Virus record (IMG/VR): IMGVR_UViG_3300032249_000861
Location: 1 to 64,000 of that record
Length of the DNA: 64,000 nucleotides
Source: a virus
Strand: one strand, 5' to 3'
The translations under genes were made by a program, and so were the position numbers. The first letter of the stretch is position 1, and the number at the start of each line of letters is the position of its first letter. The notes below the pieces were generated by a model, which saw nothing but the letters and a program-made list of their open reading frames with translations, searched no databases and was not told the origin of the DNA. Below are positions 5,320 through 64,000 of this stretch, in pieces.

Positions 5320-5321
5320 CG

Positions 5322-23823: not shown

Positions 23824-24696
23824 ATGAGTGGTAAATTCTTTATCGTTAATGGACAAGCAAAGACTTTTCCACCAAAACCACCATCTCCTCCGCTATCGTC
23901 CTTACCGGCGATGACGGTAGGGGGTTGGGGAGATCCACATATTTATATTACTACTAGCTCTGTAGATTCCAAAAACAGAACAAGTACTAAAACTATAGCT
24001 CAGGTTGGAGATAATAAGCCTGGATCAGCTGGAAATAATGAACTTATTTTATTAGATCTACAAACAACAACAGATACTATTAAAATTTATTATACCAACA
24101 AACCATGGCAGAATACCACTGCTAAAATTATAGACTCTATTAAAGTAGAACATAATACTGTCTCAACAATATATAGTGATACTACTAAAGTAGTCATTGG
24201 TCCAGTAACTCTAAGTATTGTTAAAGTTGGATCCGGAGTAAATGGTTATTTGAACTTTGAGACAACTTGGGCCAAAATCAATAATATTATTAAATTAGGA
24301 GGGGCCATAGTACCTATTCTTAAAAGAGTGGCTAATAGTAATGGAAAACTCTGGAATGGTGGAGACGGAGTATCATGGGACGGTATTGGAAAAGCAGCAG
24401 CTCCTTATGGGTTAAATAGAAGTAACTTTGAAACTGGTGTTGGAATTCAAGGCTTAGAAGAAGAACTAGTATTATCAGAGAAAGAAGCTGAATTTTTAGA
24501 AGTTGCAGCAGAAAACTTTACTCAAAATAGCGATGCTTTAGAGATTTATCAAGATAGCGACGGCGCCCCTGTTGCAACATGGGATGATGGTACTGGGCCA
24601 GCTAGGGCAATGCATTCTCTTCCTGGTGGACTAACGAGCGTAGCTGATGGGACTTATGTTGTGACTTTTGCCACTAATGTAAATTATATTCCATAA
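23824..24696 (+). CDS. Virion-associated protein with a GDPH (VWD-like) motif
   Basis: GGWGDPH after a Pro-rich linker. Confidence 0.55.
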   Translation: MSGKFFIVNGQAKTFPPKPPSPPLSSLPAMTVGGWGDPHIYITTSSVDSKNRTSTKTIAQVGDNKPGSAGNNELILLDLQTTTDTIKIYYTNKPWQNTTAKIIDSIKVEHNTVSTIYSDTTKVVIGPVTLSIVKVGSGVNGYLNFETTWAKINNIIKLGGAIVPILKRVANSNGKLWNGGDGVSWDGIGKAAAPYGLNRSNFETGVGIQGLEEELVLSEKEAEFLEVAAENFTQNSDALEIYQDSDGAPVATWDDGTGPARAMHSLPGGLTSVADGTYVVTFATNVNYIP

Positions 24697-24713
24697 TAAT
24701 ATATAGATAGAAC

Positions 24714-27215: not shown

Positions 27216-27340
27216 ATAATATATTAGAAAAGCTAAAATAAGGTCTTTAATAGCTAAATAGAGCAATACTATCTTGCCCACGGGTGTATTAACTATTATC
27301 ATACCGTATAGTATTCATAAAAATAGGACTATTTTCCAAG

Positions 27341-38560: not shown

Positions 38561-38583
38561 TTCATAAATATAGGAGATTTTAA

Positions 38584-39675
38584 ATGGCCAATAATAATAG
38601 AGTTTTTTACGGTTCTCAGGTAGCCCAACTAAAGCCAGCCACTACTGGCAATAACTATAGCGCTTGGTATCAACCTCTAGGCGTACAAAGTGTTGGATTT
38701 AATACCACTTTTGAAACAGAGCAAGCGTTTCAGTTAGGGGCTCTAGATATTTATGCCATTTCAGAAAATGTTCCTAATGTAGAAACAACAATGTCTAAGG
38801 TTCTTGATGGAACATGTCCACTATATTTAATGTGCATGGGCGGGGAGAACGGCATTAGTGGCGCAAACCTAACAGATTTCTCAGATGACCAAAAGAATAA
38901 TAAGGGGCTTGGTGCTTTAGCTAATAATACTGTTACTTTTAGACTTGGTATATATAATGATACAAAATCCAATGTTGCTGGAGAAACTAGCGACTGGGTT
39001 CAATGTTCTGGTATGTACTTATCAAGTTTAAACTACACCTTCCCTGTTGATGGTAATGCTACAGAAGAAATAACTTTAGTTGGAAACAACAAAAGATGGA
39101 GTCAGAATAATGCAGGCACTATGGGTAATATGACTGCTGTTGCCCCAACAGGAGAATATGCCATAGCCAAAAAACTAGCTCGTCGTCAATTTATTAATGT
39201 AAATGGTTCTACTATGCCTACTGGTAGTGGCGGTCTGCCGACCGGCGTAGCAACCAATGTTGACTTACATTTACAAAATGTTACCATTAGTGCTGATCTT
39301 GGAAGAGATCAAATTAATGAGTTAGGATCATTTGCTCCCTATCACCGCTACGCAACATTTCCTGTAGAAGTTACTAGCGAATTTGAAATGATTGCTACAG
39401 AAGGAGATTGGATTAGTGCTAATGACTTTTTATTCCAAAGCGGATGTGGAGTTAATTACACAAATACTGAGTCTCTACCAATTCAACTGCAAGTATGTGG
39501 CAGTGGTGACGCTACTTTAGAGATTTTCCTTGGTAGTGGTAATCAATTAACTTCCGTTAATTATACTGGGGGAGATACTAGTGGTGGAAACGTATCAGTA
39601 ACATATAGTTTCAGAAATTATAATGATTTCTATATGAAGGCTTCTGGTACATATGCTAGTGTTCCTTCGTTATAA
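38584..39675 (+). CDS. Major tail tube protein, paralogue 3
   Basis: Same motif set; strongest RBS (AGGAG). Confidence 0.7.
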   Translation: MANNNRVFYGSQVAQLKPATTGNNYSAWYQPLGVQSVGFNTTFETEQAFQLGALDIYAISENVPNVETTMSKVLDGTCPLYLMCMGGENGISGANLTDFSDDQKNNKGLGALANNTVTFRLGIYNDTKSNVAGETSDWVQCSGMYLSSLNYTFPVDGNATEEITLVGNNKRWSQNNAGTMGNMTAVAPTGEYAIAKKLARRQFINVNGSTMPTGSGGLPTGVATNVDLHLQNVTISADLGRDQINELGSFAPYHRYATFPVEVTSEFEMIATEGDWISANDFLFQSGCGVNYTNTESLPIQLQVCGSGDATLEIFLGSGNQLTSVNYTGGDTSGGNVSVTYSFRNYNDFYMKASGTYASVPSL

Positions 39676-39747: not shown

Positions 39748-39921
39748 ATGGAAGAGCTATATAATATAGTCGGTCGGTTATATGTCGATATACTTCATGC
39801 TCAGAAGTATGTTGAAAGCATACAAAATCAATTAAAAGACAAAGACACAGAGATCATATTACTAAAATCAAAATTAGTAGGTTTACCAAAAGATAAGGAC
39901 AAAAATGCTGAATCGGTATGA
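39748..39921 (+). CDS. Small coiled-coil protein, 57 aa (MEELYNIVGRLYVDI...)
   Basis: Manual translation; AGGA RBS; ATGA overlap with 39918. Confidence 0.55.
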   Translation: MEELYNIVGRLYVDILHAQKYVESIQNQLKDKDTEIILLKSKLVGLPKDKDKNAESV

Positions 39922-40928
39922 GTCAGGAACTAGAACAATTTATATATCGTATTATAAGTGCTAAATTATTATTTACCTATAATAACAAAACATATGTTCT
40001 TGTTTCTACTAAACCGATAACTAAATATAGAGCTAATTTATTATATATTTCTATCTTAAATGATGAAAAATATGATGAGTGGATAAGGGCTGAAAATTTG
40101 GACAGATACATGATGTTTCTAGAAGTTTGGAATAGTGATATGTCTAGTTTTATGGAAAAATCAGAGAAACAGATAGAAGACTTAAAAATATCACTTTATA
40201 ATAACAGACTGAATAGTAAGATGACAACGAAAACAAGAAATCAACTAGCACATTTAAGAAAAAGAATATCTGATCTTCAACTTATAAAACAAACATATTA
40301 TGCTCAAACCTTGGAAGGATATGCAGAGAGTATAAAATACGAATATATTATTACGAATACATTATTTCATAATAAAAAAAGAGTGTTTAAAAAATTTGGA
40401 TCAGTACAAACATCATATCAAGAATTTACATCAGTAGTGTCAGAGATAAATAAATATGCACTACAAACATCGGATTACAGAAGAATTGCAAGATCAGATT
40501 TATGGAGATCTTTTTGGACTATAGATAAGACTAACATCTTCCCTGGACCAGTTTCATTATGGACAGAAGAACAACGAACATTGGCAGGATATAGTTCCAT
40601 GTATGATAGTGTATACGAACATCCCGAAAAACCTAATGATTCTGTAATTGATGATGATGATATGCTTGATGGTTGGATGATTAGTCAACGTAGAGCAATA
40701 GAAAAGAGTAAACAACAAGAGTCTATACTCAAGAGCAATTCCAAGCTTGGTAAAGCACAAGAAGTATTTATCTTTACCGATAATGAGCAAGGAATTAAAG
40801 AGGTTATGAGTATGAACTCCGATGAAGCTAACCTAGCCATTGCACAACGATCTAATATACTAAATAATACGCAATCAATAGATCATGCTCGCTTGCCAGA
40901 CGTTCAAAAAGATTTACTAAATAAATAG
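39918..40928 (+). CDS. Hypothetical protein, possible tail assembly chaperone
   Basis: YDSVYEHPEKPNDSVIDDDDMLDGW; between tube and TMP genes. Confidence 0.55.
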   Translation: MSQELEQFIYRIISAKLLFTYNNKTYVLVSTKPITKYRANLLYISILNDEKYDEWIRAENLDRYMMFLEVWNSDMSSFMEKSEKQIEDLKISLYNNRLNSKMTTKTRNQLAHLRKRISDLQLIKQTYYAQTLEGYAESIKYEYIITNTLFHNKKRVFKKFGSVQTSYQEFTSVVSEINKYALQTSDYRRIARSDLWRSFWTIDKTNIFPGPVSLWTEEQRTLAGYSSMYDSVYEHPEKPNDSVIDDDDMLDGWMISQRRAIEKSKQQESILKSNSKLGKAQEVFIFTDNEQGIKEVMSMNSDEANLAIAQRSNILNNTQSIDHARLPDVQKDLLNK

Positions 40929-42242: not shown

Positions 42243-45200
42243 ATGGCTACAGCTTTTAATTTGACAGCACAACTTAATTTACGCGGTCCAAATAATGTTA
42301 ACAAGATTGTTGCAGACATTAAAAAGCAACTAACTGGTATAACTGCTAATGTTAATTTAAAACTAGACCCTAACGTTGCTAAAAATGTTAAAGCTATTGA
42401 TTATTCGCTAAAATCATTAAATGCTACATTATCTAAAACAACTACAAATGCTGGTTCCGCAGCAGCTGCTATAGCCGCTTTTGGTAAAGCTGTTAATGCT
42501 ATTAGTATAAAAAATGTATCGCCGCAAATTAATGCTGCTGTAGCCAGCATGAATAAGCTAAATAAGTCAAGCAGCAATGTTTCTCAGTCATTAACTGAAT
42601 CAGCAACAGAAATGCAAGAGTTTGGAAAACAAGCAGGATTAGCTATTAGACGTTTTGCGGCATTTAGTGCTGTTACTGGAGTTATCTATAGTTTAAGTAA
42701 TAGTATTACTCAAGGAATTCAAGCATATATAGATTATGATAAAGAACTAGTTCGTTTACAACAAGTTACAGGCGAGACCGCTGGAGGTCTACAATTACTA
42801 CAAGACTCAATTTCTCAACTAGCAACAGGTTTCGGCGTTAGCTCAAAAGAATTAACAACAGTATCAGTTACACTAGCACAGGCCGGTTTAAGTGCTAAAG
42901 ATACCGAAAGAGCCTTAAGAGCACTAGCATTAAGTTCATTGGCCCCATCGTTCGATGATATGAATGAAACTGTAGAAGGTTCTATTGCTTTGATGAGACA
43001 GTTTGGAATTAGTGCTGGACAACTAGAACCAGCTTTAGGTTCCATCAATGCTGTTGCTGCTGCGTTTGCTGTAGAAGCCGATGACTTAATTACTGCTATT
43101 CAACGTACCGGTGGTGTATTCGCCACTGCTAGTAAAGGCGTTAGTGAGGGAACAGATGCTCTTAATGAGTTCATTGCTGTATTTACTAGTGTTAGAGCAA
43201 CTACTCGTGAAAGCGCAGAAACTATTGCTACTGGTTTACGTACTATTTTTACACGTATTCAACGAGGAAGCACCATTGATGCTCTCAAAGAATTCGGCGT
43301 TACTTTAACAGACTCAGAAGGTAAATTTGTTGGAGCGTATAAAGCTGTTCAGTTATTAAGTGAAGGACTGTCTAAAATAGACACAAGAGATATTAAATTC
43401 TCTAGAATAGTAGAAGAGCTTGGTGGTTTTAGACAGATTGGTAAGGTTATTCCTCTTATTCAACAATTCTCTGTTGCACAAAATGCTCTTAAGATAGCTC
43501 AAACAGGACAATCTTCTTTGGCTAAAGACGCATCAACAGCGCAACTATCATTAGCAAATCAAATTCAAAAAGTTCGTGAAGAATTCTTCGCACTATTCCG
43601 TGAAATTGGACAAAGTAAAGGATTCCAGTCATTGCTTACTGGGGTATTAACATTAACAAGAGGTCTAATTAAGCTTGCTGATGTCTCTAAGAGCCTACTT
43701 CCTGCATTAAGTGTTGTACTAGCGTTTAAAGGAGCTAGTGCTTTAACTCAGTTTGCTAGTGGTTTCAGTAAAGGCTTTAGACCTGGCGGCGGCAAACCAG
43801 AAAAAGAAAGACCGCGATTTGCAGATGGTGGACAAGTTAGATACTATGCTAAGGGAGGACATGTTGCTGGTAGTGGAAATTCTGATACGATACCCGCCAT
43901 GCTAACTCCTGGCGAGTTTGTCATAAATAAAAAAGCCGCACGAGCTGTCGGCTCTAAGAATTTAAATAGGATTAATAGATATGCTTCTGGTGGTAAAGTT
44001 AAAGATTTAGTTAATGATCCTAATGGTAAAAAATCTCTTAAAAAGGTCTATGATATAAATAAAGATTTTGATAGTTATGAAGATCCTACAATAGATAGAG
44101 TAGACCTCGACAAAACATATGATCAGTATACACAACAATCTAAACAGATTTGGTTAGAGGCTAATAAAAAATACAAACAAGATTTAGCTCAAGGATACAA
44201 ACCCCAAAAAGGAGACGTCCCCCAATTAGCAAATGCATATATAAAAAGAGAAACTGGTGGACTAGCTCAGAATCTTGGATTCAAAGAACTAAGAGAGCCT
44301 CAGACGGCTAAAAAATTAAATAAAATTCGTGGAGCTTTAGCTGAAAATGAAGTTAAGAAAAGATATAAATTAGGAAATCCTCTCGCTTTACAAGATGGGG
44401 CTGATTTTTATGATGCTAAAAATGACAGATTCGTAGAAATCAAAAATCAGAAAAAACAATTAAAAGATTCTACTCTGATATCAAAAACATTGCTAGCATT
44501 TGCTGCGAGAAAAGGAAACAAGTTAAATAATCAACCAGATTATGTTCCTAGTTTAAAAATTCTTGCTGTTGAAGCTCCAAGCCCAGACAAATATGATGAA
44601 TTTGAAGAAAAAAAACTTGGCGGACCAATTAATAAAAGAGTTAAACAAGCTGTTGACTTCAAGAACCTGCACAAGATTAATGGGTATGCTAAAGGTGGGC
44701 CTATTGCAGCAAATATTACTGATACTACAACAAGCGATGGAGATACATTAAATGTAAATTTTACACCAGAACAAAAACCATTTAATACTTTGAGCAGATT
44801 AGAAAATTGGGATGCTTTTGAAACAGATGATGTTCAAGGTTTCAAAATACCCGAATGGCAAAGAAAATTGGGTAGAGCGGCAGCGAAGGTTACTTCTGAA
44901 GAATACAATAAACAAGATGACAAAGCTTTGAAAGCGTTTAGGTCGTCAAACGGAGCTATGGATAATTATGGTCGCCCAATGTTTAAAGATGATAATTTGG
45001 GGTCAAAATTAAAAAACTTAGGATTAGCTATGCCATATAAAGGTAAAGGCAAAGCTCCTACCAAACAGCTATCAACATGGGGAGACTATAGAAATATTTT
45101 TGGATATGCTCCTTCACAAGCACCAGGATTACAAGGAGAAGAGATATCAGAAGATAAGGCTGTAAAAAAAGCTTTGGGAGGAATGATTCAAAAGTTTGAA

Positions 45201-48200
45201 GAAGGTGGAGTAGCTCAAAGAAAAGTTGGATATATTGATTATGATGTTATAGCTAATGAAGCTAATAAAGATATTGTAGAAAAAGGAATGAAAGAAACAG
45301 GATCTGATGGTCCTAGAATCTATTCAGACTATCTTACCAAATTAGCTGTTAATGCTAGGAAATCTTCTAGTATTCAAAAACTAAGAGCAATCTATGGTGT
45401 TGCTGGTAGTGGTAAAACAACACTAGCTCGCGGTCAAGGAACAGATAATGCTAGACTAAGAAAGACAGAAAGATTTCCAATTCTTAGTCCAGAAGATATT
45501 CAAAAAGCTACTGAAATATTAATCCTAACTAGTAGTGTAAGTCAAACTAAAATGGATGATTTCTTTGGTGATGTTGATAGAGCATATACATTAAGTTCGA
45601 CTACTGATGCAGAAAGAAGCAGAGTAAGGGATCAAAGAGGATCAAGAGATGTTACGGGGATTGGTTTAGAGGGTCGTCAGCCAGGAACTACTATGGGCGT
45701 TTCAGCAGATACTGCTGTTGGAGAGGCTTTATTATCAGATAAACTAGGAGCTAAATCTACAGTATTAGGAAGAAGTGGCTCTGGTAGACTAAGAAGAAAG
45801 AGCGGAAATGAATTAGTAGACATTGTCAAGAAGAGAATTGGTTTTACATGGGGTGGATTTGCCCCAACAACAGCTGGTCATGAATCAATTATGGATGCTG
45901 CTGCTGCTATGGGTATTCCTCCAGAAGACTTTATAGCACTAGTTGGAGCTAACGAAGCCGTAGACGCATCATCTTATCGCACAGCAATATTTGATCAAGA
46001 TTCCAGAGTATTGCTAGCCAAGGCTGGTTTTGGAGCAAAAGGAGCTACTGTACTTCCCAAGCCAAGAGATTTTGAAGTTCCTCAAGGTTTTGATATAACT
46101 CAACAGGGTTCTGATAGAAGACAAGTACTAATTCCCAGCCAAGGTAGTACAGCATTTGTTGCAGATAAAACAGAAGACCAGACAGCAAAATATAGACAAG
46201 CTGGATATGATGTTAAGAACATAGAACGAACCGGTGGTATTAGTGGCACAATGGTTAGAGATTTAATTATAGCTGGAGATATGGCTAAACTTCAATCAGT
46301 ATTGTCTCCTGGCGTATATGATCTTGTCTCGAATAACATAGGAAGAATACAAAATAGAGCTAGTGTTTTACCATCTCTTATAGAACAAGCTCAAAAAGAA
46401 GCACAAGCTGAAATGGGTCAGGTGGATCAACAGATAGAAGCTCTTGGAATCAAGAGAATAGATTCTAAAAAGTTGGAGAGTGACCCAGAATATGCAGCTA
46501 AAGTAGAAGTTCTTAAAGAGTTAAGAGCTAAAAAACAAAAGATCAAATCAGCTGCGGGATTCACCCCATATAAATTATTAGATGCTTTAGCCGAAAAAGA
46601 TCCGCAAAATTATGCATTGGACTTCTCCACATCATCTAACCTGGGTAATGTTCCAGACATGAGGGTCATGGGACAAAACTCACAAGCTTCAATACCAGCT
46701 GGTAGAGTTGCTCAATTAGCTCAAGAAAAAAATAAAAGTATTCAAGACGTTATACTAGAACAGCTAGGCGGATTGGGTGGTCCTGCTGGAGTTAAAAAAA
46801 TACTTGGCATAGGTAGTGGAGATAGAACATTAAGCTCATTATTACAAGCAGGAAATATTAAGGGAGGTAAAGGTCTAGACGAAGCAGCAGACTATGTTAA
46901 CAGAGCTTTAGCCGCTAGGGGTATAAGAGATGCTGCAGAAGCCAAAAGATTAGAGGAGTATCAAGCTAAGGCTCTTCATTTTGGTATTGCTGGTTTATTG
47001 CCAATGGATTACTCAAAAGAATTCGAATGGGATATTGGCGGTACCGATGTTTACGCTACTGCCAGAGGTTTTGGTAGTACGTATTTGGAAGAAGCAAAAC
47101 AAATGCAGAAGGAGTCATCAGAACTAGCTCAAAGATTTGCAGAAAATGTGCAAAATAAAAATATCTTTGGTGGTGGTGAAAAATTGGCTTTTGATTTTGA
47201 CAAAACATTAGTTGAGGATGCAGATATTCTTGATGCTAAGGGCAAGCCAGATATTGCAAAATATTCAAATAGAGAGGCTGTACAAGAAGCTCTCAAAAGT
47301 GCAAGACCAACCAGACTAGCAACTAAATTAAAATCACTCATAGAGCAAGATCCCCCATTTATTAAGAAAACCAGAATACTAACAGCTAGGCCACAAAGCA
47401 CAGCAGACCTTCTTGCACAATCATTACAAAGCTTTGGTCTTCCCTATGCCGAAACAGATATTACTGGAGTTAGTGGTGGCGTTAGTAGCAATATTCCTGC
47501 ATTAAAAGCTGCTAATTTACAGAAAGAAGAGAAACTTATTGATGATAGTTTAGATAATATTATGGCTGTTCGTAAAGCTGGTAAAAAAGGATTTCAATAT
47601 ACTGAACCCAAATCCACAACATCAGAACTAGACGAAAAAATGGGTCAGGGTAATATCGAGGGTGCTATAATAGAAAAAGCTTTGGCTGTTTTGGGTGCTC
47701 CAGTAAGGCCGGATGCTAAACAAAATAGAGCCATAGACTATCCAGACGGTTTAGGTAGTGCATCTCAATTCTTTCCTGGTATTGATCCTGGTATTCCAAC
47801 AGAAGTTAAAAGAACAATTGACGGTAGTAGTTTAGAGAAAGTTAGAGAAGAGATTGGAAGATACATAACAGGAGGAGCCCAAGCTGTTAAATTAGCTAGA
47901 GGTGGAGCCGTTCAAAGCTTTATGGCCGGTGGAGCAGCAACCAAAACCAGAAAAACAAAAGAGCCTTTCGGAACTGGTGAAACAGAATTTCCAACAAGAA
48001 TATCAAAAAAATATGCCGAAGAACAAAAAACTGCTGATGAATTTGCTAAATCTAAATTAGCATGGGATAAGTATCCTAAAGACGAAAGAATAATGGTTGA
48101 CGATACAAAAGTGCAAGAAGCTTATCAGCAACCATTCGATAGAGAAAGATTTGCTTCATCATTCAAAGAAAAAATTAGTCGCGACTCACTATTCCAAAGA

Positions 48201-51200
48201 ATGTCAGATTTTGCTAAGTTTGTAGGACTTCCAGAAGAAGACCTATCAGTAGCATTACCCCTACAATTAGATTTCGGCGCTAGCAAAAGAGGCGGTGGTC
48301 TAGGCATGTTCGCTGCTGCTCAATTTGAAAAAGGAGCAACCGGAATTAGGCCATATGAAGGCTATGATTTATCTAAATTTGGATATGGAGAAAAACAAAA
48401 ACAAGAAGCTTATGGATTAGAGAAGCTTATAACAGCAAAAGAAAAAGAAATAGCAAAGATTAGAAAAACACCAACTGAAACTTATGATGATGGTAGTTTC
48501 TCTTTTGATAGTGAAGCATTCCAGAAAACCAGTATTGAGTTAGATAGCCTTAAAAATAGATTATTTAAACTAAAAGATTTAAAACGTGACGCAGAAAAAG
48601 CGGCACTGTCTGAGCAAAATACTACTTCATCAGCTGCCGGTCGAGGAACTATCAGCTTTGCTTCTTCTATGGGTTACTCTAGCGATACCAAGAACAGCAC
48701 CCTATACCACGAAATGACTCATCAGCTATTTCAAGGACTAAGAACAAAATCAGCAGGGAGTTTTGATAAATATCGAGATAGAGTATCGTCATTATTTTCT
48801 GGAGATAATGATGATTTAGCAGACGCTTTTGACTCCTTAACGGCTGGGGGCGGATATTCTAGTGCTGATGTTGTATATGGTAGAAGCTATAAGTCAAATA
48901 ACTTAAGTCAAATACTTTCGAGCTATTATCGTCAGAATCTTGATTTTTCTAGAAGTGCTGCTACTATTCCCCAAGATACGACAAAAAATCTTGCTAGTTT
49001 AAGTACCCAAAGCACAGCCGCCAAAAGAGCCAGAGAGTATAGACCAATAAATCCTAGAGTTAACGAAGCTTTACTTCAAGCTGGCGATAAGTTTGGAATG
49101 ACTCAAGAGAAGATTGATAGAATGGAAGATAATGGTAAAGAAGAGTTCTTAACAACCTTAATGGAAAAAGCCCCTCAGCTTGATCAAAATTTACAAGGAA
49201 TTTTAGACTCTACTTTAACAGAACTATTGAGTGGAGCTGGAATTCAGAGACAAAAATATGCAGCAGGAAGAAAAGTAGATTACGAATCTGGTGTTGGAGT
49301 ATCACCATTCGGAGGTTCGATATCAAAAAGATTAAGCGAGTCAGTTTATAATCTGCAAAAGGGTACCGGACTAAGTGATCCAGAATTCAATGAGATCAAA
49401 AAGACAGCAGATACATACGGATATAATGAAGAAGAATTTAAAGAATATTTAGCAAAAAGAATACAAGAGAAAAAGAATAAACAGGGACTAAGAGCCAGTC
49501 CATCAGCCTTGGCACAGCAGTTGATGCAACAAAAAACAGTATCAACACCCAAACAGCTAGCATTAGCAGAAACACTAAAGGGTGAGCCAGATGCTGGTTA
49601 TAGACCCATACCAACAGCAGCCGAAAGAATAGCTTCAGATCGAATGGCTGTTCAGAATGCCACAAGAAGATTTGCTAGTGGAGGCACTGTCTCGGCTTTA
49701 GTTAGTAACGGCGAAGCTTATGTTCCGCCAAAAATAGCCAAGAGAATTGGTTATGGTAATCTTAATCGTATGAATCAAGCTGATCGTAACGGGATGAGCA
49801 AGTTCTCTAGCGGTGGTATTAGTGTGTTTAAAGGTCCTGGGACTGGCACTAGTGACAGTATTCCTGCTAATTTACCAGTTGGTAGTTTTATTATTAGAGA
49901 AAAGGCTACGAAGGCTTTAGGTCTTAATAAGGGAGGTGCTGTACCAGCACAAAGATTTGCTACTGGGGGTAGCGTAACAAGCATGATTATGGAATGGTTG
50001 TCATCAGACATGACTGCTGGGACTAAGCCTAAAATGCCTCAAAGACCTGATATTGTTAGTAGGGCTACTGTTACAGCTTCTTCTGATACAACAAAAGAGT
50101 TGGATAATCTAGTTAAATCTCTTAATGCTGTCGGGTTTAGTGCAAAAGAATCTGCAGACATATTGAATAGGGGCGGGCAGGTTAGTTATAAAACTATAGA
50201 AAAAGCTTTGGTTAAAGATATTGAGAGATTAAAAAAATCTACAGCAGGTATAGATCAAATTACTCAAGCAGAAACAACTTTAGCAAGAATTCGTAATCAG
50301 ACAAAAAAAGATGTTGGTAGTAAACAAAAAATGGAGGAAGCTTTCAGAGGATCAGGAAGATCATCCGGCTCTGTGCAGCAAGAAATTTATTCTACAGCCA
50401 TGTCTATGGGCGAACAGAATATAGAAGCAAAAGAAGCTGCGAGAAGAAAGAAAATACCACAAATAGAAAAAAGAGAAAGAAAAAAGCTTATAGAAAGTAA
50501 GCGAGAAGATTTTATTGAGAAAGAATATAAAAATCAAGTAGCTAAAGAACAAAAAACTAAAGGTAGAAAATTAACAAGTACAGAAAAAGATAAAGTTAGA
50601 TCTGATGCAGAGCTTAAGGGAAATACAAAAACTTTTAAATTAACTACAGAAGAAAAAACCAATGTTAAAGCAACAGCACAAGCCAAAACCACATTATCTG
50701 CTGAAGAAAGAACAAAAGAATACAATAAAGCAGCGTTAAGGGCGACAACCTCGGTTACAGGAGCAAGTAAATCAGAATTAGCAGCTAAAAACGTTAAAGG
50801 TTCTGATATCTTAAGATATGCTCAAGAGAGTATGAGAGATCGTAAAACCCTAGCCGAAATGGATAAACAGTTTGTGGCTATGGCAATGGATGAGTATAAA
50901 AATCGTGGCACTGTAAATGGTATAGTTGTTAAGAGTGCGGCTGAAGCTAAAAAAGCTGCTGAAGAGGAGATCTCAAAGAGAAGAGAAGCTATTAATGCGA
51001 GAGCTTCACAGAATGGAGAAAAAGGAGTCGGTGCTGCTGGGTTGAGAGACTATAGAAATAGTCCCATACTTAATCAGATAAAGGGATTTATAAAATCTCC
51101 TGGAAGAGTAATGGGTGGAGTGTCTGTTGCTGCTGGGCTAGCTGCTGGCTCTTCCGATATGATTGCTAAAAATATGTATGATATGAGTACAACAGAGGGC

Positions 51201-54200
51201 CAAGGGAAAGCTGCTAAAACTTCTGCAGCTATTCAGTCTTCTGGTACTATTCTTAGTACTGGATTAGCAGCAGCATCACAGATGGCAACCATACCAGTTA
51301 TTGGTCCTTATGTTGCTGCTCTTACTGCTGTGGGAACAGCTGCTGCAGCTGCTGCTGATTATTTTTATGATTTTACAGGAGCTCAAAAGGCTGCTACTGT
51401 AGAATTCGAAAGATCAGTAAGGGCCAAAGAAATTGGAATTGCTATGGATGGTTTAGATAGAGCATTCCAAAATTTTGAAAAAGACATGGGTAATATTGAT
51501 TTACAAAACGCTTTAGAAAAATCCCTCGGCGGCGCATCCTCTTTGCAAATTAAAGATAATATGGCAGAAAGAGACAATGCTAAAGCAGAGTTCTCTTTAA
51601 AGAATAGAAGTTGGTCGGATATTTTTAGTGGAAACTTCAAAGGTTCCGCCAAGATGGACGCTCTTCAGCAAGGTGCTATGGATAGTGAAATGTCTCAAAA
51701 GATAACACCAATAGCAGATAAGGCTATGTCGTTATATGAGAAACAAATTAGTAGCGGTAAGAGTATACAAGATATTGTTAATAATGTTCGTACAGGAAAT
51801 AAAGAGGCTGGAGCTGCTGGTTTTGCTGTTGCTGCAAGTGTAAATCCCAAGTTGTGGTCAGAGTTAGAAGCCAAGATAGCAAAATCAGGAGATACTTCAG
51901 AGCAGAATAGAGAAAAAATTCAAAAAGAAATAGCTGCTAGAGAATTACTGACCAATGTTCAATTACAGTCAATTGAAAGAATGGCTAAACTAAATAAAGA
52001 GATGGATGCTGCTGATAGAGCTGGTCGCAGATTGGCTGAAACTTTTGAACACATAGGTGAAACTATTGATCAGTCAATTCAGAGAATGCAAAGAGAGTCG
52101 CAAATTCGTCAAGCTCAAGCTAACGACAGAGTAGAAGCTAGAAGAGGAAATGCTGGTTTTGATGAGAGGGCTGTTAATAACAGAAATGTTGGAGTACTAA
52201 CCAGTCCAAAAGCATATCAAAATGATCCTGGGCGCATAGAAGAAGCTATCAGAGCAGGAACTACCGGCATGTCCCCGGAACTTGCTCAAAAAATGGCTGG
52301 TGGAGCTAGATTAGAAGCTACTTTACCTAATGTGATGAGAAATGCAGTATCTTCAGAGCTTAAAACAAATGCCAATTTAGATCTTGCTGAAGCAGCAGAT
52401 GCCGCCAGGAAAAAAGGAACAGAAGCTATTCAAAGGTCTGGATTATCAGAAGCTGACCAAAAAGTTGCTATAGATAAATTAAACACAAAATTAAATAGTG
52501 AACAAGAAAAAGCACAAAAAGAAGGAGGAGATAGTCCAAGACAGAAAGTTGACTTTTTTATTGATTCTGTTAGTGAGCTTGGTCCAGAAATAGCTAATAT
52601 ATTTGGTAATGCTGGTAAGAGACTAGATGATATTATTCAAGCCAGACAAGGAATCTATGATACTTTTGCAAAGAATCTTCAAGCCGCCTCAGAAGCTGCT
52701 AAAAAAGCACGAGAATTTTTCAGTAAAGCAAGAGACATAAGATATAATGCTGGAATGGATTTGAGAGAAGCTCAAACGGGCGTAGGAGAAAGTTATGCTG
52801 AAGCAAAAGCTAAATCTGATAGTAGTATTGCACGATTAACTGGCGGGGTTACCGATCCTCAAGCTATTGGTAGAAATATTGATGCTTTAACGGCTCGTCG
52901 TGATCAGCAAATGAAAGCTAGAGATGCCGCAGCATCTGATCCAAATCTAACTCCAAAACAACAAGAAGATGCGGCCATAAAATTTGCTAAAGATATTCAA
53001 GCTACTAATAATGCTTTAAACGATAATAGAGAAGCACTAGATAAGCTAGCTAATAGTGCTGAAGTAGCACAAAAAGCTTTAGACGAAGTTAAGAACATTA
53101 GAGGACTACAACAAGATAGAGAGAACTTTGTTAATCAATTACTAACAAATACTCCAGCAGAAGCAGACAAACTTAATCAATCATTTATTAGACTTCAGCG
53201 TAACTTGTCTGGTGGGTTAAATAATGCTTCTAATCAAAGAGATGCCCGAAATGCTTTTAATGATACGTTACGTCGTACAGGTAATCTAAGAGAAGCTACT
53301 CGCGCTGGAAATACTGTATTAGCAGATCAAAGAAAACAAACCCTACAGCTGATGCAAGATCCTGGATTTAGGGGTATGATGACCCTTAATATGAAAAATC
53401 AGGGAATGAATGATCAACAGATAGATAAGAAATTCAGAGATCAAGAGAGTATGCTGATGCAGCAGATGGCTGTTGAAAGTGGAATGATCAATAATCCAAT
53501 GGTCAGACAAGCACTAGCCGCAAAACAAGATCCTAATGCTGATCCTGCCATGAAACGTGCTGCTGAACAATTTTTACAGTCAACGGGCTTACAGGCAAAA
53601 GCTACTGAGGAGCAAGGTCGATTAGAATTAGCTAATGTGCAAAGCTTATTAATAACATCTACTGATGATTTAAGAACGTCTATAGATGCTTTAACAACAA
53701 GTATTAATGCTTCGTTAGGTCCAGACGGAGAAAGAGTTCCTGGCGCTGTTGGGCCTATGGTGCCTGTTCCAGCCGGGGCCAGAGGAGCAGGTCCTATTGG
53801 ACGTCCTATTAGACGAGCTACTGGTGGTAAAGTCAATACTCAATATGCTAGTACTGGTAAATTAATAGACTTTTCTCCCAAGGGTACCGACACTGTTCCC
53901 GCCATGTTAACCCCCGGTGAATTTGTTGTTAATGCCAAAGCAACGGCAGACAATTACCCACTGCTAAAAGCTATTAATAATGGAACTAATCTAGTTGGTA
54001 ATACGGCTATGATGAGTAAGGGTGGAGTTGTTTATTTAGATAATGGCGGATTAATAGATGAGTTTAGAAGAATAGATTCTAATAGTTCCAACTTTTTAGA
54101 AGTTGGTGAAATAGATCTTAAAATGATGCAATTATTAGATACAGATAAAGATAATAAAGTTTCATTTAGAGAATATTCTGCAAGAGCAAAGAGCGGTGGT

Positions 54201-57200
54201 AGTGGATCTTCAAGATCTGGTCAAAGATCACCAGTTAATAGTAGTTTTAAAGCCGACAATCTAAGCTTTAAAGCGTATTCTAATGCTAGAGAAGAAAAAT
54301 ACTCAAAAAGATACGAAGGCACCAGAGATCGATTCCCTAGAGAAACAGAGAAATTTTCTAGTGGGGGCTTAGTTACTCCATACTATTTACAGGACGGAAC
54401 AGAAAAACCACTATCTAAAAGACCCTTTATGGTAAAGATGGAGAAACCAGAAGACCCTCTTGAGGCTGCTGAACGCCGTCGTGCCCGTGCTCTTAAAGCG
54501 TCCCATCCAGAGATTACTAGAGTCAGACAACCATCTTTGGTTCCTGGGGATCCTAGAGCATTAAGACACAAAGAAAGCTTCTATAGACTAGATGTTAATA
54601 GTGATGGTGTTCTAGATGCAAAAGAAGGCAGACCACATCCTGAACTTGATAGAGATTTAGATCGAAGAATAACACTAGAAGAATGGGACGGAATCGATCC
54701 TGGTGAATTTGACCCAGATGATTCAAGCCATGTTCTGCGAGACAGTAAAGGCAATCCTTTAACTCCTGGACTTATGGGAAGCCCATTTGAAAAAAGGCAT
54801 CGTTCTTTAATGGCTTCTGTTGCTATGGATGAAGAAAAACTTGCTAAGGGTGAACCTTTAGTGGACTCTAATGGAAAACCCATAGACTTAGCAAGTAAAA
54901 GGAAAGAACTAGCCATATTTAATGCTCAGTCTGGTCTATATAATACTAGTCAATCACTTATAGCAAGACAAAAAAATATTGACGATAGTCTAACCAAACG
55001 ATTAACTGGTGGCGGTTCTCTTCGTAATCCTGATAGTTCTTATGCTGTTACGAGAGAATTTAATAAGATTCGTGATCGGAGATCTGCTTTTGAAGAAGAA
55101 AGAAGAGGTCAAAGAGCCAAAGATGAGAACGCAACAGATGAAGAGATATTTGATCGCACAGTAGAAGCCTATGGGCAGGGAGATTCAGATTATTGGCGTA
55201 GTATGGGCGTTACTGAAGCACCAAACTCTTATGATGAATCTAATACTCTGAATTTTATTCGCTCAGGTGATCGTCTTGCAAGCAGAGGAGATCCTTATGG
55301 AGACAAGGCCAGAGCATATATAGACGGATATATCGCATCACAAGGTGCTAGACAACAGCAGGACAGAGTAGATATTGGCATGGGAAGACCTACCATATCT
55401 CCGGACAAAGCTGTAGTAGGTACTCAAGGTCCAGTAGACGATCTTAATTATTTGATAGACCGAAATGAAGTAGGTAGAGCGGTAAAGTATAAAGCAGAAC
55501 AAGCAAAGACTGAGGAAGAGAATAAGCAGAGAGATGATGCTCAGGTAAAACAAGCAGAAAAACAAGCAAGCTTAGAAAAAAGAGATAAAGAACTAGGCAT
55601 AGACACTAGCGGCATTAATCGAGATATATATGAGAGTGGTGGGGGTTTTTCAAATCAGCCAGGAAGTGGCAGAAAAGTTACAGTAGAAGAACAAACACAA
55701 AGAAAAAGAGAAAGGGCTATAGCAGATAGATTTTCGTTCACAGATAAAACAGGAAAATACTCTACTGCTGGTACTATTGATAAGGTTGATTTTGAAAAAG
55801 GTACAGTTAAAATAGCTAAGATGGATCCGAAAACTGGGGAGCCTATTACCAGAACGGTTCCGGTTTTTGCTGGTGGTGAAACAGAAGAAGCGATTAAGGC
55901 TTCTGGTAGAGATCCCAGAAGATTCAAGGTTGGGGAGAAAGAAGAACAAGTATACACTACTGTACCACTAGATAAGCTTAGTGATAAATCTAGAGATAAA
56001 GTTAGATCTTATGGCTTAGAGAAAGAAGCAGACAAAGCTAAGACTGGTGAAAATTTTACAGTTGGCACTAGTTTTGAAGATTATAAAGGTAAAATATTTA
56101 GAGTAGATGAAAAATCTGAAAAAGTTATTGTTCAAAAGGAAGATGGCAAACTAGTTAGTGTTCCTATGGGAATAATAGATCCCGAAACAAAAAATATAGC
56201 ACTAGATCAAGCCAAGACAGCTACTACAGTTACTGATTTAACACAGAAACAGATGGATGCAGATATCGGTAATATTGATTTCACTTCATCATTACCAGAA
56301 CCTCAGGTTCCATTAATTGAGGACTTTACTGATAGAGCAAATGAAGTTCGTCAAGAGACTATGAACAATGCTGCTTTAGAACAGACAAAGATGGATCAGT
56401 TACCGGTGATGTCTGAACCAGTACCAACTTCAGGTACTATTGATCCTCTTACTGGCAAAGTTGTTGGGAATAATGTTTCTATGGACTTGAATCCAGACGG
56501 AACTCGCACTCCAGAACAATTAAACATATTAAACCAACAAGCTACCAGAGATGCAGACAGACGTAATTCTAACGCAAGATACGAGGAGCTTAGAGCTCGA
56601 TCAAAAGCAGAGTCTTCATATGACAGATCATGGTTTGGAGAAAACTGGCCCAAAGAATGGGGAGGAGTATCAAAGCCCGAAAAAAGATTAACAAGAAAAG
56701 AATTAGAAGAACTTGGGGCTATGGAAAGTGAAAGAGGTGTTCCTGCATTATCAAGATTAGGAGCCAACACAAGAGTAGAACAAACAAGGAGAAATGCTGG
56801 GTTAGACGAAGCACAAATTGAAAGTTTGAGTCAACAAAAAACAGAACAGTTTAAAGCTGAACTTGAGAAAAAAAATGACGCAGAAGGTGGGGTGGCTGTT
56901 GGACTAGCTGCTCAAAGAGCAGTAGTTCCATTATTAGCTGGTGCTACCGCTGTTGCTGCTGCGCCTGCTTTAGTTCCAGCAGGAGTAATTGGTGCTGGAC
57001 TTACCATTGCTGGCGGTGTTGGTTTTAGTTTGGGTGCTAATAAACTACAAGATGTGGCATTAGAAGGTACAGATTTTGACAAGAGGCAAAAAGAATTGGC
57101 AGAAAAAAGGCCAGGAGCAACTGCTGTTGGGTCTTTATTACCAGGATTATTAACGGGCAATCCACTGACTGGTGCAACTACTCTGCGACAAGCACTAGCA

Positions 57201-60200
57201 ACAAGAGCTGCTAGCGGAGCTACTGAAGCAGCACTAGGGGCGGGCATCAGAGGAGCAACTAGTGGTGGAGATTTCGGTACCGTACAAGATGTTGGAATGG
57301 ACTTTATCTCTGGAGCTATTCTTCCGTCTCCTAATTTTGGAGGTAAGGGATCAAAAAACTATAATATTCCAGAAGGTCCAGCAAAACCCAAAACAGAAGC
57401 AGTCGCTTTAAAAGAACTTGCTAAAACAGTTAAGGCTGAACAACGAGCAATCACAGAAGAAAATGTTCTTGATGGTGCTGAAATATTAGCAACAAAAAGA
57501 AAACAAGAAGAAGTTAGAAGAGCAGCACAAGAAAAACAAAGAGTCAGAGATGAAGCAGAAGCAGTGAAAGAATCAGGAAGAGAAAAGGCTGTTTTTGATG
57601 TTTTCACTATTGGAGGAAGATTAAGTGATGATAATATAGCCAGTGCCCTAAAGTCAGCCAAGGAAAAAACTGTAACAGGAACCAAGTTACTAACCGGCAA
57701 AGTTACCGGCAAGCCTAGGGGAGATTTAATAGAGCAGAATCCTACACTAGCTAGTAGACTAGGGGTGTCAACTCCAGGATTAGATGCTGTCAAGAATGGA
57801 CAAAATATAACAGCAAAAGATTTAGTTGCAAAACTAAAAGATGAAGGTTTTAGTGAAGAATATGCTAAGAAGGTCTCAAGAGAGCGTACTCTTAAGATGG
57901 TATCAGATCTTGCTACCGAACGATCAAAAAGAAAAGATGAATCAATACAACAAGTGGCTTCTGAATATAAAGACGCTGTAACTGGTGTTGAAGATCCTAA
58001 TAAGCGAGCCAAAATTAAGGCTAAATTTCAAACCAGACTGCAAAAAGAACTATCGTCTATAGTATCTGACACTAACGACAGAGCAGAAGCATTTGATTCT
58101 GGTATGACGGTTCAAGAACTTAAAAAACAAAGAGCAGCAGAAGCTCAAGCCAAAGATAAAGCAGAGTCTGATAAATTAATACAAGAGTTTGATTCTACTC
58201 TAGGATCAAGTAAGCCAATAACTATTGATAATCCGCCCATCGGAGAACCTCTCGATCTAGGAGTAGACCCACTCGCACCAATAACGTCTGCCAGGGATAA
58301 TGCCGCTACTACGGCAGCTAGTACAAAACCGATATCAACAGAAGAACAGTCTCCGGTTGGAGAAACCACAATTCCTCAGCCTAATAAAGATGCTGCTGAT
58401 ACCGTAACTGCCGGTACAAAACCAGTCGATGCTGCAACAGTAGCAGCAAAAAACCAGACAGTAGTCAAGGCAGCAGAACAAGAAAATACATCTTCGCTAC
58501 AAACATCAGCGATACCGCAGCCCAAACCCTATAATCCTACAGATTATCCTATTATGGATAGTATTATGAGAGGAGGAAAGAACGGCCATTATGGTCCGAT
58601 GGGTACTACTAATATAACAGGTAAACAAAATATTCATGGAATAAGCGGATGGAAAACTAGACTCATACCAAAAGACGACGCGTCTGCAGCAAAAATTAAA
58701 GAATTTTTAGATACTCATCCAGATATAGGGTCATATAAGTTAGCATTAAATGAGGGACCAGTACCAGTATTTAGTGTCTATTTCAAAAAAGGCACCAAAG
58801 ATGAAGCACTATCTTTTGCACAAGCTAGTGAAAAAGGACTAAAAGATAGTTTAGATCCTCGTTTATATCAGGGTGCTGATACTCTGCTAGAAGGGACAAA
58901 TATTTCCGCAAGATTTGATGCTAGAGATCTAAAGAATAAATCAGCATCATCAATTATAGATAGACAACTAGAGAATTCTCCTTTTAGTAGAGGATTTTTA
59001 AAAGCTGAAGAACTGAATCTACAAATACTTCCATCAAATACGGCACCTGGGTCAACGGCTAGCAGAGCAATGCCAAACATTACTGCTGGCACCAGAGGAG
59101 TACCAGATACCGGGTATGTTGATTGGTTAAAAACAAAAAAGTTTTTGGCGAAAGATCCTAAAAAGATAGCTAGTCTAGATGCAGAGATACAAAGAGCTAC
59201 TAACGTAGCAGATGATTGGCTAAAAGAAAATATGTCCGACATCTACAGCGCATCTGCTGAACGAACAGCTAGAGAATCAACAGGCCCACAACAACAAGCA
59301 GTAGTTGAAACAGCAACAAGAGACGCTACGAGCAGGCCAACCAAATCCGGTTTTGTTCGAGATAAATCATTACCGATAAACGAAGTAGACGATCTAGCTT
59401 CTGCCGGATTTGGAGTTATAAGCCCAGACCAAGAAGTAGAAAGTGTTATAAGGGGTGCAAGAGAAAATTTTCTTGGCTCTTTAACTAAACCAGCAGCATT
59501 ATTACAGCCAGAAACATACCAAAAATATGCAGACCAACTATTAGAACTAGAAAAATCAGGAAAAATAAAAATAACCAAAGGCGCTTCATTTGGTACTAGT
59601 GGCCAACCAAGTATATTTGTAGGAAAACCAGAAAATGTAGATATTCTTGCAAAAGCTTTTGAATCTGAAACAGCAAGGACACGAGAAACGAGAGGTTCAA
59701 CATCAAATGAATTTAAAGAAACGGTAGGAAAAGCATTAGGATATAGTAAAGATAGTATAGCCCTACATATATTAGAAAAAGATTGGGATAAAGCAGGATT
59801 AGATATAGACACTATTCAAGATAGATTACAAGTTAGTCGTGGTGCTGCTGCTCGGTATATGGTATCAGAAATTAATAAAGCTAAAGAACAAGCATCAGTT
59901 GAGCAAGGAGTAAAAGAATCAATAAACCCGCCCATCAAAGATCCTATTACTGGAGATGAATTTGAATTAGGACCTGGAGATGATTTTCAATTAGGAGGTC
60001 TTGGAGAAGATCCGTTGGCACCGGCTCCTATAATAAAACCAGAAAATGTATTACCTGAAGCAAGAGCAGAATCAGAAGCTCGTAGAGCCGAAACAGCAAC
60101 CTCACGAACTAAATCTAGTATTGTTGATGAAGATGAGTTTGTTTTAGGAGACATGGAAGATGATAGTACTGTCGTAGCTGTTGAGCCTGACGATGGTTCG

Positions 60201-63200
60201 AACTTTTTTGGAGAAGCATTCGCTGCCGCCGCACAAGAAGCCAGAGCCATAGAAGCAACAAGGGCTCAGATTGAAACCAACGATAAGTTTGTTGTTGACC
60301 AGCCTGATATGATGACAGCTTCAGAGCTTGACCCAATAACAAGAGCTTCTAGTAGGAGGGTTTGGGGATCTGATAAGGCTTTTGAAAATATGCCCAAACC
60401 CAAAATTTCTAGAGAAAAAGTCAAAGCACTAGACACTGGCGAGCCTGACGAGATGACAGCTTCAGAGCTTACTCCTCTACAGAGGGCCGTTATTAATAAG
60501 TCATTCGGACTTGATTCTGATAAAGGTTTCGAATTGCGAGAACAACTTATAGCTCAAAAAAGAGAAGCAGATATACTTCCAGAAGACTTTTTTCCAAACG
60601 GTTCATCAAGAACAGAAACTCCATTATCTTCAGCTAGAACAGAAGCAGAAGCTAAGAATCCTGGTACCGTATTTGAAGGACAGTTAGAAGCAGCATTAAC
60701 CGATGCTTCTTCTCCAGAAGCTTTAAAAGCTTCTGCAGAAGCTCAACAAAGATTAGCAGCACAAAAATTAGCAGCAAAATCTCCAGAACAAATATCTGTA
60801 GAAAAAACATATGGTCCTTTATATAGAGAAGCTAAAAAAGCTAATGATACAGCGGAGATGGCCAGAATACGATTAGAAGCTAATGCAGAATTTAAGAAAC
60901 GCTCTCAAGAAGCTTCTACAAGATCTGAAGATAAAAAGAACAATTTCCTTCCTGTTATGGGTAGGGTCTTAAAGATAGCCGCCCCAATCGGATCAGCTAT
61001 TGGTTATGGACTAGGATCGTTATTAAGTGGTTCTATGGGCAGAAAAAAAGAAGAACCTCAAGATTTAGCTTCTAGGTTAGAAAATGCTTCTGATCTACAA
61101 GAAGTTTTTGATCTTTTAAAACTAGCAGAAAAAGACAAGATAGGAAACCCGACTAATCCTTTAAGAGAAATAGGCGGATCATCCCCACTTATTGCTAAAT
61201 TACAAAAACTAGCTCCAGAAATATATGGTAAAAAAGGTAGTGACTATTTTAGCTCTCAAGACTTAGCAGCTATGCCGGAAGACGCATATAATGAGAATTT
61301 TCTAGAAAGATTAAAAGATAATGCAACATTCGAGAAGATGAAAAGAGAACAAAAGGTAGCTGAACCTGCTCGCTTAAAGAGTGATGAGGCTGCACGGGCT
61401 ACAACAAGAGATCTTATAACGCAATGGTCTCAAGACTTTGCTATGGCGGGTAATGATGTCCGAACTCCTCCAGGTTCTGATCCTAAAAAAGCTAGAAATC
61501 CGTTAAAAGCCATGTCACGAGAAATGGCAGAAAGAGCACAAGAAAGAAGAAGTGGATTCCCCACAGACGATCAAGGAAACGATCTACAGATAGGCACTAT
61601 GATTCCCGCCCCGATATCGGTTTTAGATCGTACAAAAAATGATGCTGCAGCGATGAGAGAAATTGACGAAAAAGATAATAATGCTGCTCCGATGCTGGAA
61701 GTTAAGAAACCAGTAAAGAAATCTCTTGGGGGTTTAATTTATGCGTCGAAAGGAACCTTAGTAAACTACCAACCTCGTGGAACTGACACAGTACCAGCAA
61801 TGTTAACTCCGGGCGAGTTTGTTGTTAATGCCAGAGCAACAGCAGATAACTACCCATTACTAAAAGCTATTAATAGCGGAACTAACGTTGATACTACTGC
61901 TAATATGAGTAAGGGCGGTGTGGTTTATGCTCAAGAAGGAGCATTAGTACCTAGCTTCGGAATGCATATTCCATCTTTAGATCCAGACAAAAATACTAAA
62001 TTAACCCTATTACCAGAAAGCTCTTTAGATCAAGCAAATACAAAAGAAGCTTTTCGAGAATATGGAAACGCTCGACCTTCCTATCAATCAAGACCACAAC
62101 TACCAAAGCCAACTGTTCAATCAGGATCTTTTAAAGAAGGAGTTCATGATAGAAATTCTGTTATAAAAGATAGTGAATATTCTAGAAGTTTAAAGAGAAT
62201 GGGTATTCCACACGTATCACAGAGTGGTGGATCTAAAACCTATTTGGATCAAAATGGCAGAGAAATTTCAGCAAATGAATTTAAACTTTTACCAGAAACG
62301 TCTTTTAATCATCCAGAATATGCAGTCATGCGTAGCAGAGCAGCTTTTGCTGCTGGAGCTGCTAAGTCTGTTGTTCCTCAAATGGGGGCTACGTCTGGGG
62401 CTATAGCAGGAGCAGCTGCCGGAGCCGTATTAGGACCTCCCGGAGTAATTGCCGGAGGCTTGATTGGAGGTTTGACTGGTGGTATAATGGGATCGGCATT
62501 ACAAGAAACAGCATTAGATATAGCAAATCCAGAGGCTAACGCTATAGCTAATCAACTAATGGATCAAAATCCCGTATCAGCAATGGCAGGATCAGCAGCA
62601 GGAGACATTGCAACAGGAGGATTACTATCATTAGCCTTGCCTTCTATACCAACACCAACAAGGGCTGGAGATTCAATGGTTGGTCCCGGAGGACTAACAC
62701 CAAAACAAATAAAACATGCTGAAAAAGGATTAAATAGACCCATATCAGAAGCGATTACTCCGTTTACAGGAATGAAAGGATTTGGAGGTCGTTATGTTGA
62801 CGGTCCAATAAGTGTTGATCAGTTAGTATATAAATCCAGAGACAACTTGGCTGAGAGTATTCATTACTCTGGGGCAGATCCCAAAACATTTGATTCATTA
62901 ACAACAAGATTAACAGAACCTGTTCCTGGAGCTCTTGGTGATTATTACCAGGGACTAAGCAGGATATCTCCTAAAGCTCCTCCAGAACATATTATTGGAA
63001 CAATAGCTCATGAGGCTGGCCATCATTATCAAACAATGAAGGACCCTACTGGAAGATTCGTAAAAACTTGGATGTCAGATAATAGAGATCAAGCAAGTGA
63101 CTGGATTTTAAAAAGAACATCCTCTCCTCAATATCTTGAAACTGCAACTCCAAGAAACCAGGTGAATTATGGAGTTAATGATATGCTGAGTGGGGATTTT

Positions 63201-64000: not shown

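Follow-up and report, generated by a model that had tools for sequence, protein, structure and literature searches.

The window, the whole stretch of DNA analyzed here, comprises bases 1-64000 of one viral contig of 110,025 bp (IMG/VR record IMGVR_UViG_3300032249_000861) and ends within a giant tape measure protein (TMP) gene, which, like all features of this gene given below, lies on the plus strand. From the ATG at 42243 to the window end, both the open reading frame listing and the translation show a single frame with zero stops over 7,252 codons; on the entire contig this frame continues to a TAA at contig positions 64965-64967, giving a product of 7,574 amino acids (aa) with zero cysteines. 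An earlier, sequence-only reading of the window had postulated a frame of 21,758 nt without stop, encoding more than 7,250 aa, and translation bears this out. The start at ATG 42243 can be regarded as fixed because the N-terminus MAxAFNLTAQLNLRGP is kept in 15 relatives.

The extreme size of the gene raises the question of an artefact, either an assembly chimera or neighbouring genes fused through lost stop codons, and internal DNA repeats (copies 3 and 4 of the gpH-type element described below, with 78% nucleotide identity over 130 nt) could indeed mislead an assembler. Yet a Logan contig of 94,758 nt, which is an independent assembly though probably of the same source sample, spans positions 44001-64000 with 0 differences and an even depth of 21.6. 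In addition, a word-indexed search recovered at least 238 giant relatives (3,988-12,691 aa; E <= 0.001); among the matches listed, the proteins are 4,000-7,733 aa long and uninterrupted, almost all contain PF10145, and they are located on contigs of up to 247 kb. These relatives originate from JGI, ENA, Logan and NCBI data of different studies, and their core blocks are in the same order; one relative, P0003, is 87% identical. The perfect agreement with the Logan contig and the uninterrupted relatives across data sources thus indicate that the gene is real and not an assembler-specific chimera. The G+C content of the contig ranges from 31 to 47% in 2-kb windows, and no stop interrupts the 7,574 codons. 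The probability of an artefact is therefore negligible, and neither the in-frame stops nor the assembly chimera that the sequence-only reading had named as grounds for rejecting it were encountered.

Residues 149-484 (42687-43694) form a TP901-type TMP domain, which is recognized by TIGR01760 (E 6.4e-28; 97.8 bits, cut-off 28.8), by PF10145 (E 2.5e-23; 83.4 bits, cut-off 33.2) and by PHROG TMP families. It is part of a conserved N block (residues 1-530) with a hydrophobic segment at residues 475-503, and it is present in 145 of 148 relatives; the roughly 520 aa of TP901-type TMP proposed earlier are thereby recovered. The curated cut-offs are passed, the gene has a tail-module setting, and both hydrophobic segments and a C-terminal gpH-type element (residues 7285-7385) are present. 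Judged by these sequence features, the protein is a genuine tape measure protein. A second conserved part, the helix-rich block of 1,260 residues (residues 2600-3860; 50040-53822), is found in 133 of the 148 relatives when these are split at the joint motifs described below. This block had been interpreted as a second TMP-like region (50-53.8 kb), and it is indeed helix-rich, conserved and equipped with one hydrophobic segment (residues 3014-3039), but according to hhalign it is not homologous to the N domain (probability 0.7%), and it matches no PHROG TMP family. It likely represents the ruler or channel part of the protein.

Repeated elements and mosaic structure

The giant protein is partitioned by five copies of a gpH-type element of about 90 residues, which consists of an xGGxV motif, GTDTVPAMLTPGEFVVN and another xGGxV motif. 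Copy 1 (residue ~551; 43800-44042) reads xGGxV ... DTIPAMLTPGEFV ... xGGxV, and copy 2 (residue ~2541; 49650-50042) is degenerate (SIPANLPVGSFII), followed by copy 3 (residue 3886; 53790-54092), copy 4 (residue 6518; 61680-61982) and copy 5 (residue 7323), which is located beyond the window at contig positions 64095-64397. A profile made of 400 copies matches residues 752-796 of lambda gpH, where the pattern is also visible by eye, and PHROG matches put the element near the C-terminus of ordinary TMPs. The gpH-type element can therefore be considered a normal C-terminal TMP element that is multiplied here. The relatives contain between 0 and 8 copies each, mostly 2 to 5. The highly similar stretches of copies 3 and 4 (window positions 53883-54012 and 61779-61908) are, given their nucleotide identity, a substrate for recombination inside the gene.

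Short xGGxV motifs also flank the cassettes of the protein, that is, the segments described in the following sections. In alignments with relatives, 64% of 1,919 ends of high-scoring segment pairs lie within 20 aa of an xGGxV joint (expected 13%), and 16 of 34 distinct breakpoint clusters are near joints (p 1.3e-6). The order of the cassettes is shuffled among relatives, and splitting 148 relatives at their joints yields 329 segment clusters with a small core and 217 singletons. On the basis of these alignments, the xGGxV joints are recombination breakpoints where relatives exchange cassettes, and the family, as far as its sequences tell, consists of a conserved scaffold to which a very large accessory repertoire is added. 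A join of positions 44779 and 49624 in X1 was also considered; it includes just 22 nt on one side and probably belongs to another phage with the same joint motif, and was thus dismissed.

Enzyme cassettes

Residues 1001-1460 (45243-46622) comprise a P-loop, a HIGH-class nucleotidyltransferase (NTase) and a helical tail, a module that about 100 of 128 relatives possess. Its Walker A motif (GVAGSGKT, residue 1052), the TAGHES motif (residue 1210) and the GISGTxxR motif (residue 1332; here GISGTMVR) are invariant in 11 sequences with identities down to 43%. An AlphaFold model of the module (predicted local distance difference test, pLDDT, 68.7) retrieved NTase domains of NMNAT, PPAT and FAD synthetase with Foldseek at a probability of 1.0; the fold list consisted of this class only, with NMNATs at the top. 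At the profile level, the best PDB match was not significant (E 0.014) and aligned the ISGT motif to MJ0951, and HIGH_NTase1_ass (Pfam) was matched by all 11 module members below threshold. The Rossmann-like fold together with the HxGH and ISxTxxR signatures identifies a HIGH-class NTase, and its fusion to a P-loop is confirmed at the level of the structural model and the sequence motifs; Pfam matches of the P-loop itself were at the Walker A level only. When a profile of the whole module was compared with 1.84 billion representative proteins, it retrieved only 108, nearly all of them giant, in which 600-3,400 residues separate the module from the N-terminus; a standalone homologue of cellular origin was not among these representatives. 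By sequence, the module is specific to the giant TMP family.

The P-loop is separated by approximately 600 residues from a downstream module of its own, an optional HAD phosphatase of the Pnkp type (residues 1640-1790; 47160-47612). In 15 sequences with identities down to 34%, none of the four HAD motifs DxDxT (here DFDKT), T-A-R, K and DD varies, and the cassette, modelled with a pLDDT of 85-97, adopts a capless HAD fold whose nearest neighbour is the 3'-phosphatase of T4 Pnkp. Predicted fold and motifs together confirm the identity as HAD phosphatase. The cassette has no counterpart in two relatives (L004 and L005). Residues 1905-2350 (47955-49292) form a mostly helical cassette (pLDDT 85-98) with an HExxH motif (YHEMTHQ, residue 2156), a candidate zincin-like metallopeptidase, in which YHExxHQ and several further blocks are invariant. 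It is located downstream of the NTase here, and upstream of it in four relatives (L012, L013, L025, L033). The HAD cassette (window position 47160) and the HExxH cassette (47955) both open with FG(G/T)GE right after the joint, so that the joint signal may reach past the GG motif.

Upstream of the P-loop, residues 818-978 (44694-45176) show the pattern DGD(T/S), R, D..E, GR, which is invariant in nine sequences and which we take to match the active site of staphylococcal nuclease. The corresponding segment cluster includes 95 of the 148 split relatives, and PF00565 is listed for some relatives in precomputed domain lists; the cassette is staphylococcal-nuclease-like at the motif level only. In addition, a small conserved segment with an E...D...ExK pattern (47640-47882; pLDDT 27-45) is a possible PD-(D/E)xK nuclease.

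General searches added little. Profiles of the HAD, HExxH and nuclease-like cassettes found nothing significant among PDB sequences, single-sequence Pfam scans of divergent cassette copies and a whole-protein phmmer search against PDB sequences found nothing, a search of the ESM Atlas with residues 600-1000 gave no usable match, and Pfam, PHROGs and NCBIfam applied to eight pieces of 1,000 aa detected almost nothing besides the N domain and EF-hands. The invariance of the motifs suggests that the predicted enzyme domains are conserved and apparently active. The globular cargo that had been proposed for 44.0-49.6 kb is largely supported for residues 800-2350, where folds and invariant motifs are found and where the enzyme content is concentrated. 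This content is real but below what had been claimed: instead of "many" enzymes, three folds or motif sets are solid, all within residues 1000-1800.

The C-terminal half and cysteine avoidance

Residues 3950-6480 (54090-61682) constitute a hypervariable bay with EF-hand loops at residues ~3966 and ~4136 and a hydrophobic Gly/Ala-rich segment at residues 4883-4933. It is followed by a glycine-zipper segment (residues 6715-6754) and a second HExxH motif (HEAGHH, residue 6923), both located at 62385-63047. Residues 3950-7250 are common to at most 10 relatives and, apart from the EF-hand loops, the two Gly/Ala-rich hydrophobic segments and the second HExxH motif, consist of orphan sequence. A DxDxD polymerase motif as in phage P23-45 was not found outside the EF-hand loops. 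The suggestion of more cargo beyond 54 kb was not confirmed, and no enzyme is recognizable in this part of the protein.

The lack of cysteine is shared by 115 of 127 giant relatives, and the giant relatives overall contain 31 cysteines in 714,991 residues; for the remaining genes of the contig, the cysteine content lies between zero and 3.8%. The TMPs gp96 of P23-45 (5,002 aa) and gpH of lambda (853 aa) also have zero cysteines, and TMPs in general may be marked by the avoidance of this amino acid. Because the avoidance spans the enzyme cassettes, it argues that the cassettes share the fate of a TMP, namely tail storage and ejection, rather than being ordinary cytoplasmic enzymes. We infer that the cassettes are stored in the tail and ejected together with the rest of the TMP. 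A cysteine-free rule that extends over 715,000 residues represents a simple and testable signature of tail-stored, expelled proteins.

Comparison with known systems

Ordinary siphophage TMPs contain a hydrophobic or Gly-rich segment, are ejected, have a role in forming a membrane channel and are trimmed at the C-terminus. Like the giant TMP, lambda gpH is cysteine-free and contains an xGGxV ... GEFV ... xGGxV element (residues ~735-790), but it has one element and no enzyme domain, whereas the giant TMP, at nine times the length, has five elements as well as several enzyme cassettes. During injection, the TMP of lambda can be labelled from the cytoplasm, where a defence nuclease is also active (PMC13190303), which makes end-processing enzymes at the cytoplasmic injection site plausible. 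Glycine zippers, in turn, occur in TMPs as well as in effector translocation (PMC10240207).

TMPs are usually seen as rulers and channel formers, and it was Thermus phage P23-45 that showed a TMP carrying a polymerase into the cell: the N-terminal part of its gp96 is a virion RNA polymerase that transcribes the pre-early genes and is active as soon as injection has taken place (Chaban et al. 2024, PMC10770324), a fusion that the authors called "previously unsuspected" (PMC10770324). When checked, gp96 had a length of 5,002 aa, no cysteine and a single Pfam domain, M23. It resembles the giant TMP in being a giant cysteine-free TMP with a fused enzyme in the virion, an embedded peptidase and membrane segments. 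There is, however, no sequence relation beyond generic TMP character, and the cargo differs, RNA polymerase and M23 peptidase in gp96 as opposed to P-loop/NTase, HAD, HExxH and nuclease-like cassettes in the giant TMP. Furthermore, gp96 lacks the repeated gpH-type element, no cassette shuffling has been described for P23-45, and the giant TMP is 51% longer than gp96, the largest TMP studied. Enzyme domains inside a TMP, namely cell-wall hydrolases, are also a feature of mycobacteriophage TM4, SPbeta YomI and T5 Pb2, of which YomI is among the few GenBank phage matches to the N domain (30% identity). In contrast to these domains, which attack envelope peptidoglycan, those that are recognizable in the giant TMP are related to nucleotides or nucleic acids, suggesting that they act in the cytoplasm.

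Polyvalent proteins, which occur in phages and in conjugative elements (Iyer et al. 2017, PMC5512222), similarly combine several unrelated enzyme domains in one virion-associated polypeptide and are predicted to be co-injected with the DNA; a zincin-like peptidase was proposed to serve self-processing (PMC5512222). The giant TMP contains at least two disparate enzyme domains encoded beside virion genes (NTase, HAD, Walker A, HExxH), and in this respect it resembles the polyvalent proteins to which the sequence-only reading had referred. Those of phages are predicted to be packaged in the capsid, with MuF-domain head proteins as prototype, and the domain repertoire differs (PMC5512222). None of their domain set (MPTase, methylase-helicase dyad, ART and others) was detected in our Pfam scan, in which the TMP domain was the sole anchor, and tape measures are not mentioned in that study (PMC5512222). 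Contractile injection systems of actinobacteria have Sle1-type, tape-measure-related effectors (PMC13277306, PMC11126660), whose functional domain can be exchanged and sits on a carrier derived from a TMP, which is loaded into a tail-like tube and translocated to membranes; these are, however, cellular systems and not phages, with a single functional domain, ordinary size and no sequence relation.

With respect to the cargo, the HAD cassette recalls T4 Pnkp, its nearest fold, and the pair of P-loop and HIGH-class NTase recalls NadR, including phage Bas30_86 of NARP3 (PMC13464706), although the domain order is reversed in the giant TMP. The HAD forms a cassette of its own, which is optional and lies about 270 residues from the P-loop/NTase module, and no single pathway is therefore implied. 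A NadR-like rebuilding of NAD+, as known from NARP3 (PMC13464706), would be the other obvious reading of a P-loop linked to an NMNAT-like domain.

Proposed function and alternatives

Taking these findings together, we consider it probable, if by no means certain, that the gene encodes a giant mosaic TMP of a family known only from metagenomes, which is stored in the tail and expelled, with enzyme cassettes acting at entry. The host would thus probably receive finished enzymes by way of the tail. As in other TMPs, the whole chain would be stored in the tail tube and expelled at infection, the hydrophobic and glycine-zipper segments would enter the membrane, and the enzyme cassettes would regain their fold at the inner membrane or within it, close to the incoming DNA, where the few copies per virion could act locally. 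The likeliest targets would be nucleic-acid ends or nucleotides (end healing by kinase and phosphatase, and nucleotidyl transfer), and the purpose might be to counter injection-stage or RNA-cleaving defences or to prepare the genome ends. Cleavage of the chain at its joints may be the task of the HExxH domain and the gpH-type elements. If its length scales as in P23-45, the tail would measure about 1.1-1.4 micrometres. The sequence-only reading is partly supported: its carrier idea is reasonable by analogy with one proven precedent, P23-45 gp96, and agrees with a genuine TMP, invariant catalytic motifs and a cysteine-free chain, whereas the multitude of enzymes is not supported.

Several observations weigh against such a carrier. 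TMPs are present in 3-6 copies per virion, which limits a bulk metabolic role and makes it less likely. Folded domains may not fit into the tail lumen unless they are stored unfolded. The P-loop part was modelled with a pLDDT of only 26-60, and its kinase nature rests on the Walker A motif and conserved Arg residues; because this part folded poorly, "kinase" is a guess. The HExxH cassette had no significant profile match among PDB sequences and no fold match, although the latter is explained by the HAD domain, which filled the lists obtained with the 711-residue model, and is not evidence of a new fold. For the nuclease-like cassette, no Pfam or PDB-profile match was obtained. Finally, about half of the protein (residues 3950-7250) has no recognizable domain, and searches for standalone relatives retrieved one fragment for the sampled residues 5290-5800 and none for residues 6780-7252.

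One alternative is that the protein is a ruler only, whose length builds a tail of more than 1 micrometre and whose enzyme-like domains are structural filler or relics that are not catalytic in infection. A TMP of 5,002 aa goes with a tail of nearly 1 micrometre in P23-45 and its relative P74-26 (PMC10034513, PMC10770324), the latter having the longest known tail (PMC10034513), and the composition of the giant TMP resembles that of the P23-45 ruler (13% versus 11% Gly plus Pro, zero cysteines). However, filler would not need catalytic motifs of NTase, HAD and HExxH that are invariant down to 34-43% identity, and the relatives range from 4,000 to 7,733 aa with optional and shuffled cassettes, so that length is not the conserved quantity. 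Moreover, the N-terminal part of the P23-45 ruler is itself an active enzyme, and we regard a pure ruler as improbable. The protein might also be a polyprotein whose cleavage at the xGGxV/gpH-type joints takes place in the producing cell, with only the TMP-like pieces entering the tail and the enzymes working late or ending up in another part of the virion. In lambda, the region that bears the element is the one where gpH is trimmed to gpH*, and the giant TMP has five copies of this element; a conserved HExxH candidate peptidase and joints that bound every cassette are what one would expect of a polyprotein. Yet cysteine is avoided along the whole chain, including the cassettes, in 148 relatives, which fits a virion or ejection constraint better than late cytoplasmic enzymes, and there are neither separate start sites nor standalone versions of the P-loop/NTase module; processing in the producing cell thus has little probability in our view. 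In its most far-reaching form, ejection of the cassettes with the TMP would make the tail a programmable multi-effector device: cassettes swapped at xGGxV joints would be freed there after ejection by the HExxH domain or the gpH-type elements and released to the cytoplasm ahead of the DNA, kinase/NTase and Pnkp-type phosphatase would neutralize injection-stage or RNA- or NAD-targeting defences, and the tails, at over 1 micrometre, would be the longest known among viruses. We consider this complete scenario unlikely.

If enzyme carriage by the giant TMP is true, the family would make such carriage general and modular, with a conserved scaffold and exchangeable enzyme cassettes that are delivered before phage gene expression. 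This is relevant to the survival of phages in the face of defences that act while the DNA enters or shortly afterwards, and it would provide a natural protein-delivery chassis with defined swap points. It also draws attention to lake phages that have not been cultured and may have tails longer than the present record.

Phage context

The contig belongs to a tailed phage, with genes for TerL (13407-15428) and portal (15485-17683). No sheath was detected among the genes scanned, and the tail is therefore likely, though not proven, to be siphovirus-like. No close relative was found among 50,697 GenBank phage records with a 20-kb megablast and a tblastn search with residues 1-3000; the latter gave only N-domain matches of 26-31% and short gpH-element matches. 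No locus of the P-loop/NTase module was present in 185,579 species genomes, so that there is neither a host clue nor a prophage, and no tRNA genes were found. The literature on "Moraphage" and cyanophage CL131 proved unrelated. The phage is an uncultured freshwater (lake-water) long-tailed phage, and its lineage as well as the giant mosaic TMP family are known from metagenomes only. Small-share runs with a freshwater or lake label, two RNA runs among them, were left out of the evidence.

Genes for fibre-like proteins occur in two places, one at 21.5-32 kb and the other immediately following the giant gene; their products contain Mtd_N, FGE-sulfatase (C-type-lectin fold), fn3 and glycine-rich domains. 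Those that flank the tape measure gene at window positions 21579-29443 and contig positions 64988-68518 combine Mtd_N heads with FGE-sulfatase or glycine-rich domains, a make-up typical of targets of diversity-generating retroelements. Repeats of the ACACCAACA type encode a Thr/Pro-rich linker (window positions 25737-26463) in one FGE-sulfatase-domain protein of 833 aa. A cysteine-free protein of 336 aa without family match, encoded at window positions 39918-40928 by the third gene before the tape measure gene, is a candidate for the tail tube protein. Three tandem paralogous genes (417, 409 and 363 aa; window positions 36085-39675) are located shortly before the putative tail tube and chaperone genes; they share DNA blocks with 71-74% identity and have no family match. 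The early region (window positions 413-6031) contains seven to eight copies of an element of 62-108 nt, which consists of a GC-rich core between TAAG-type boxes and recurs at a spacing of 625-1,790 nt.

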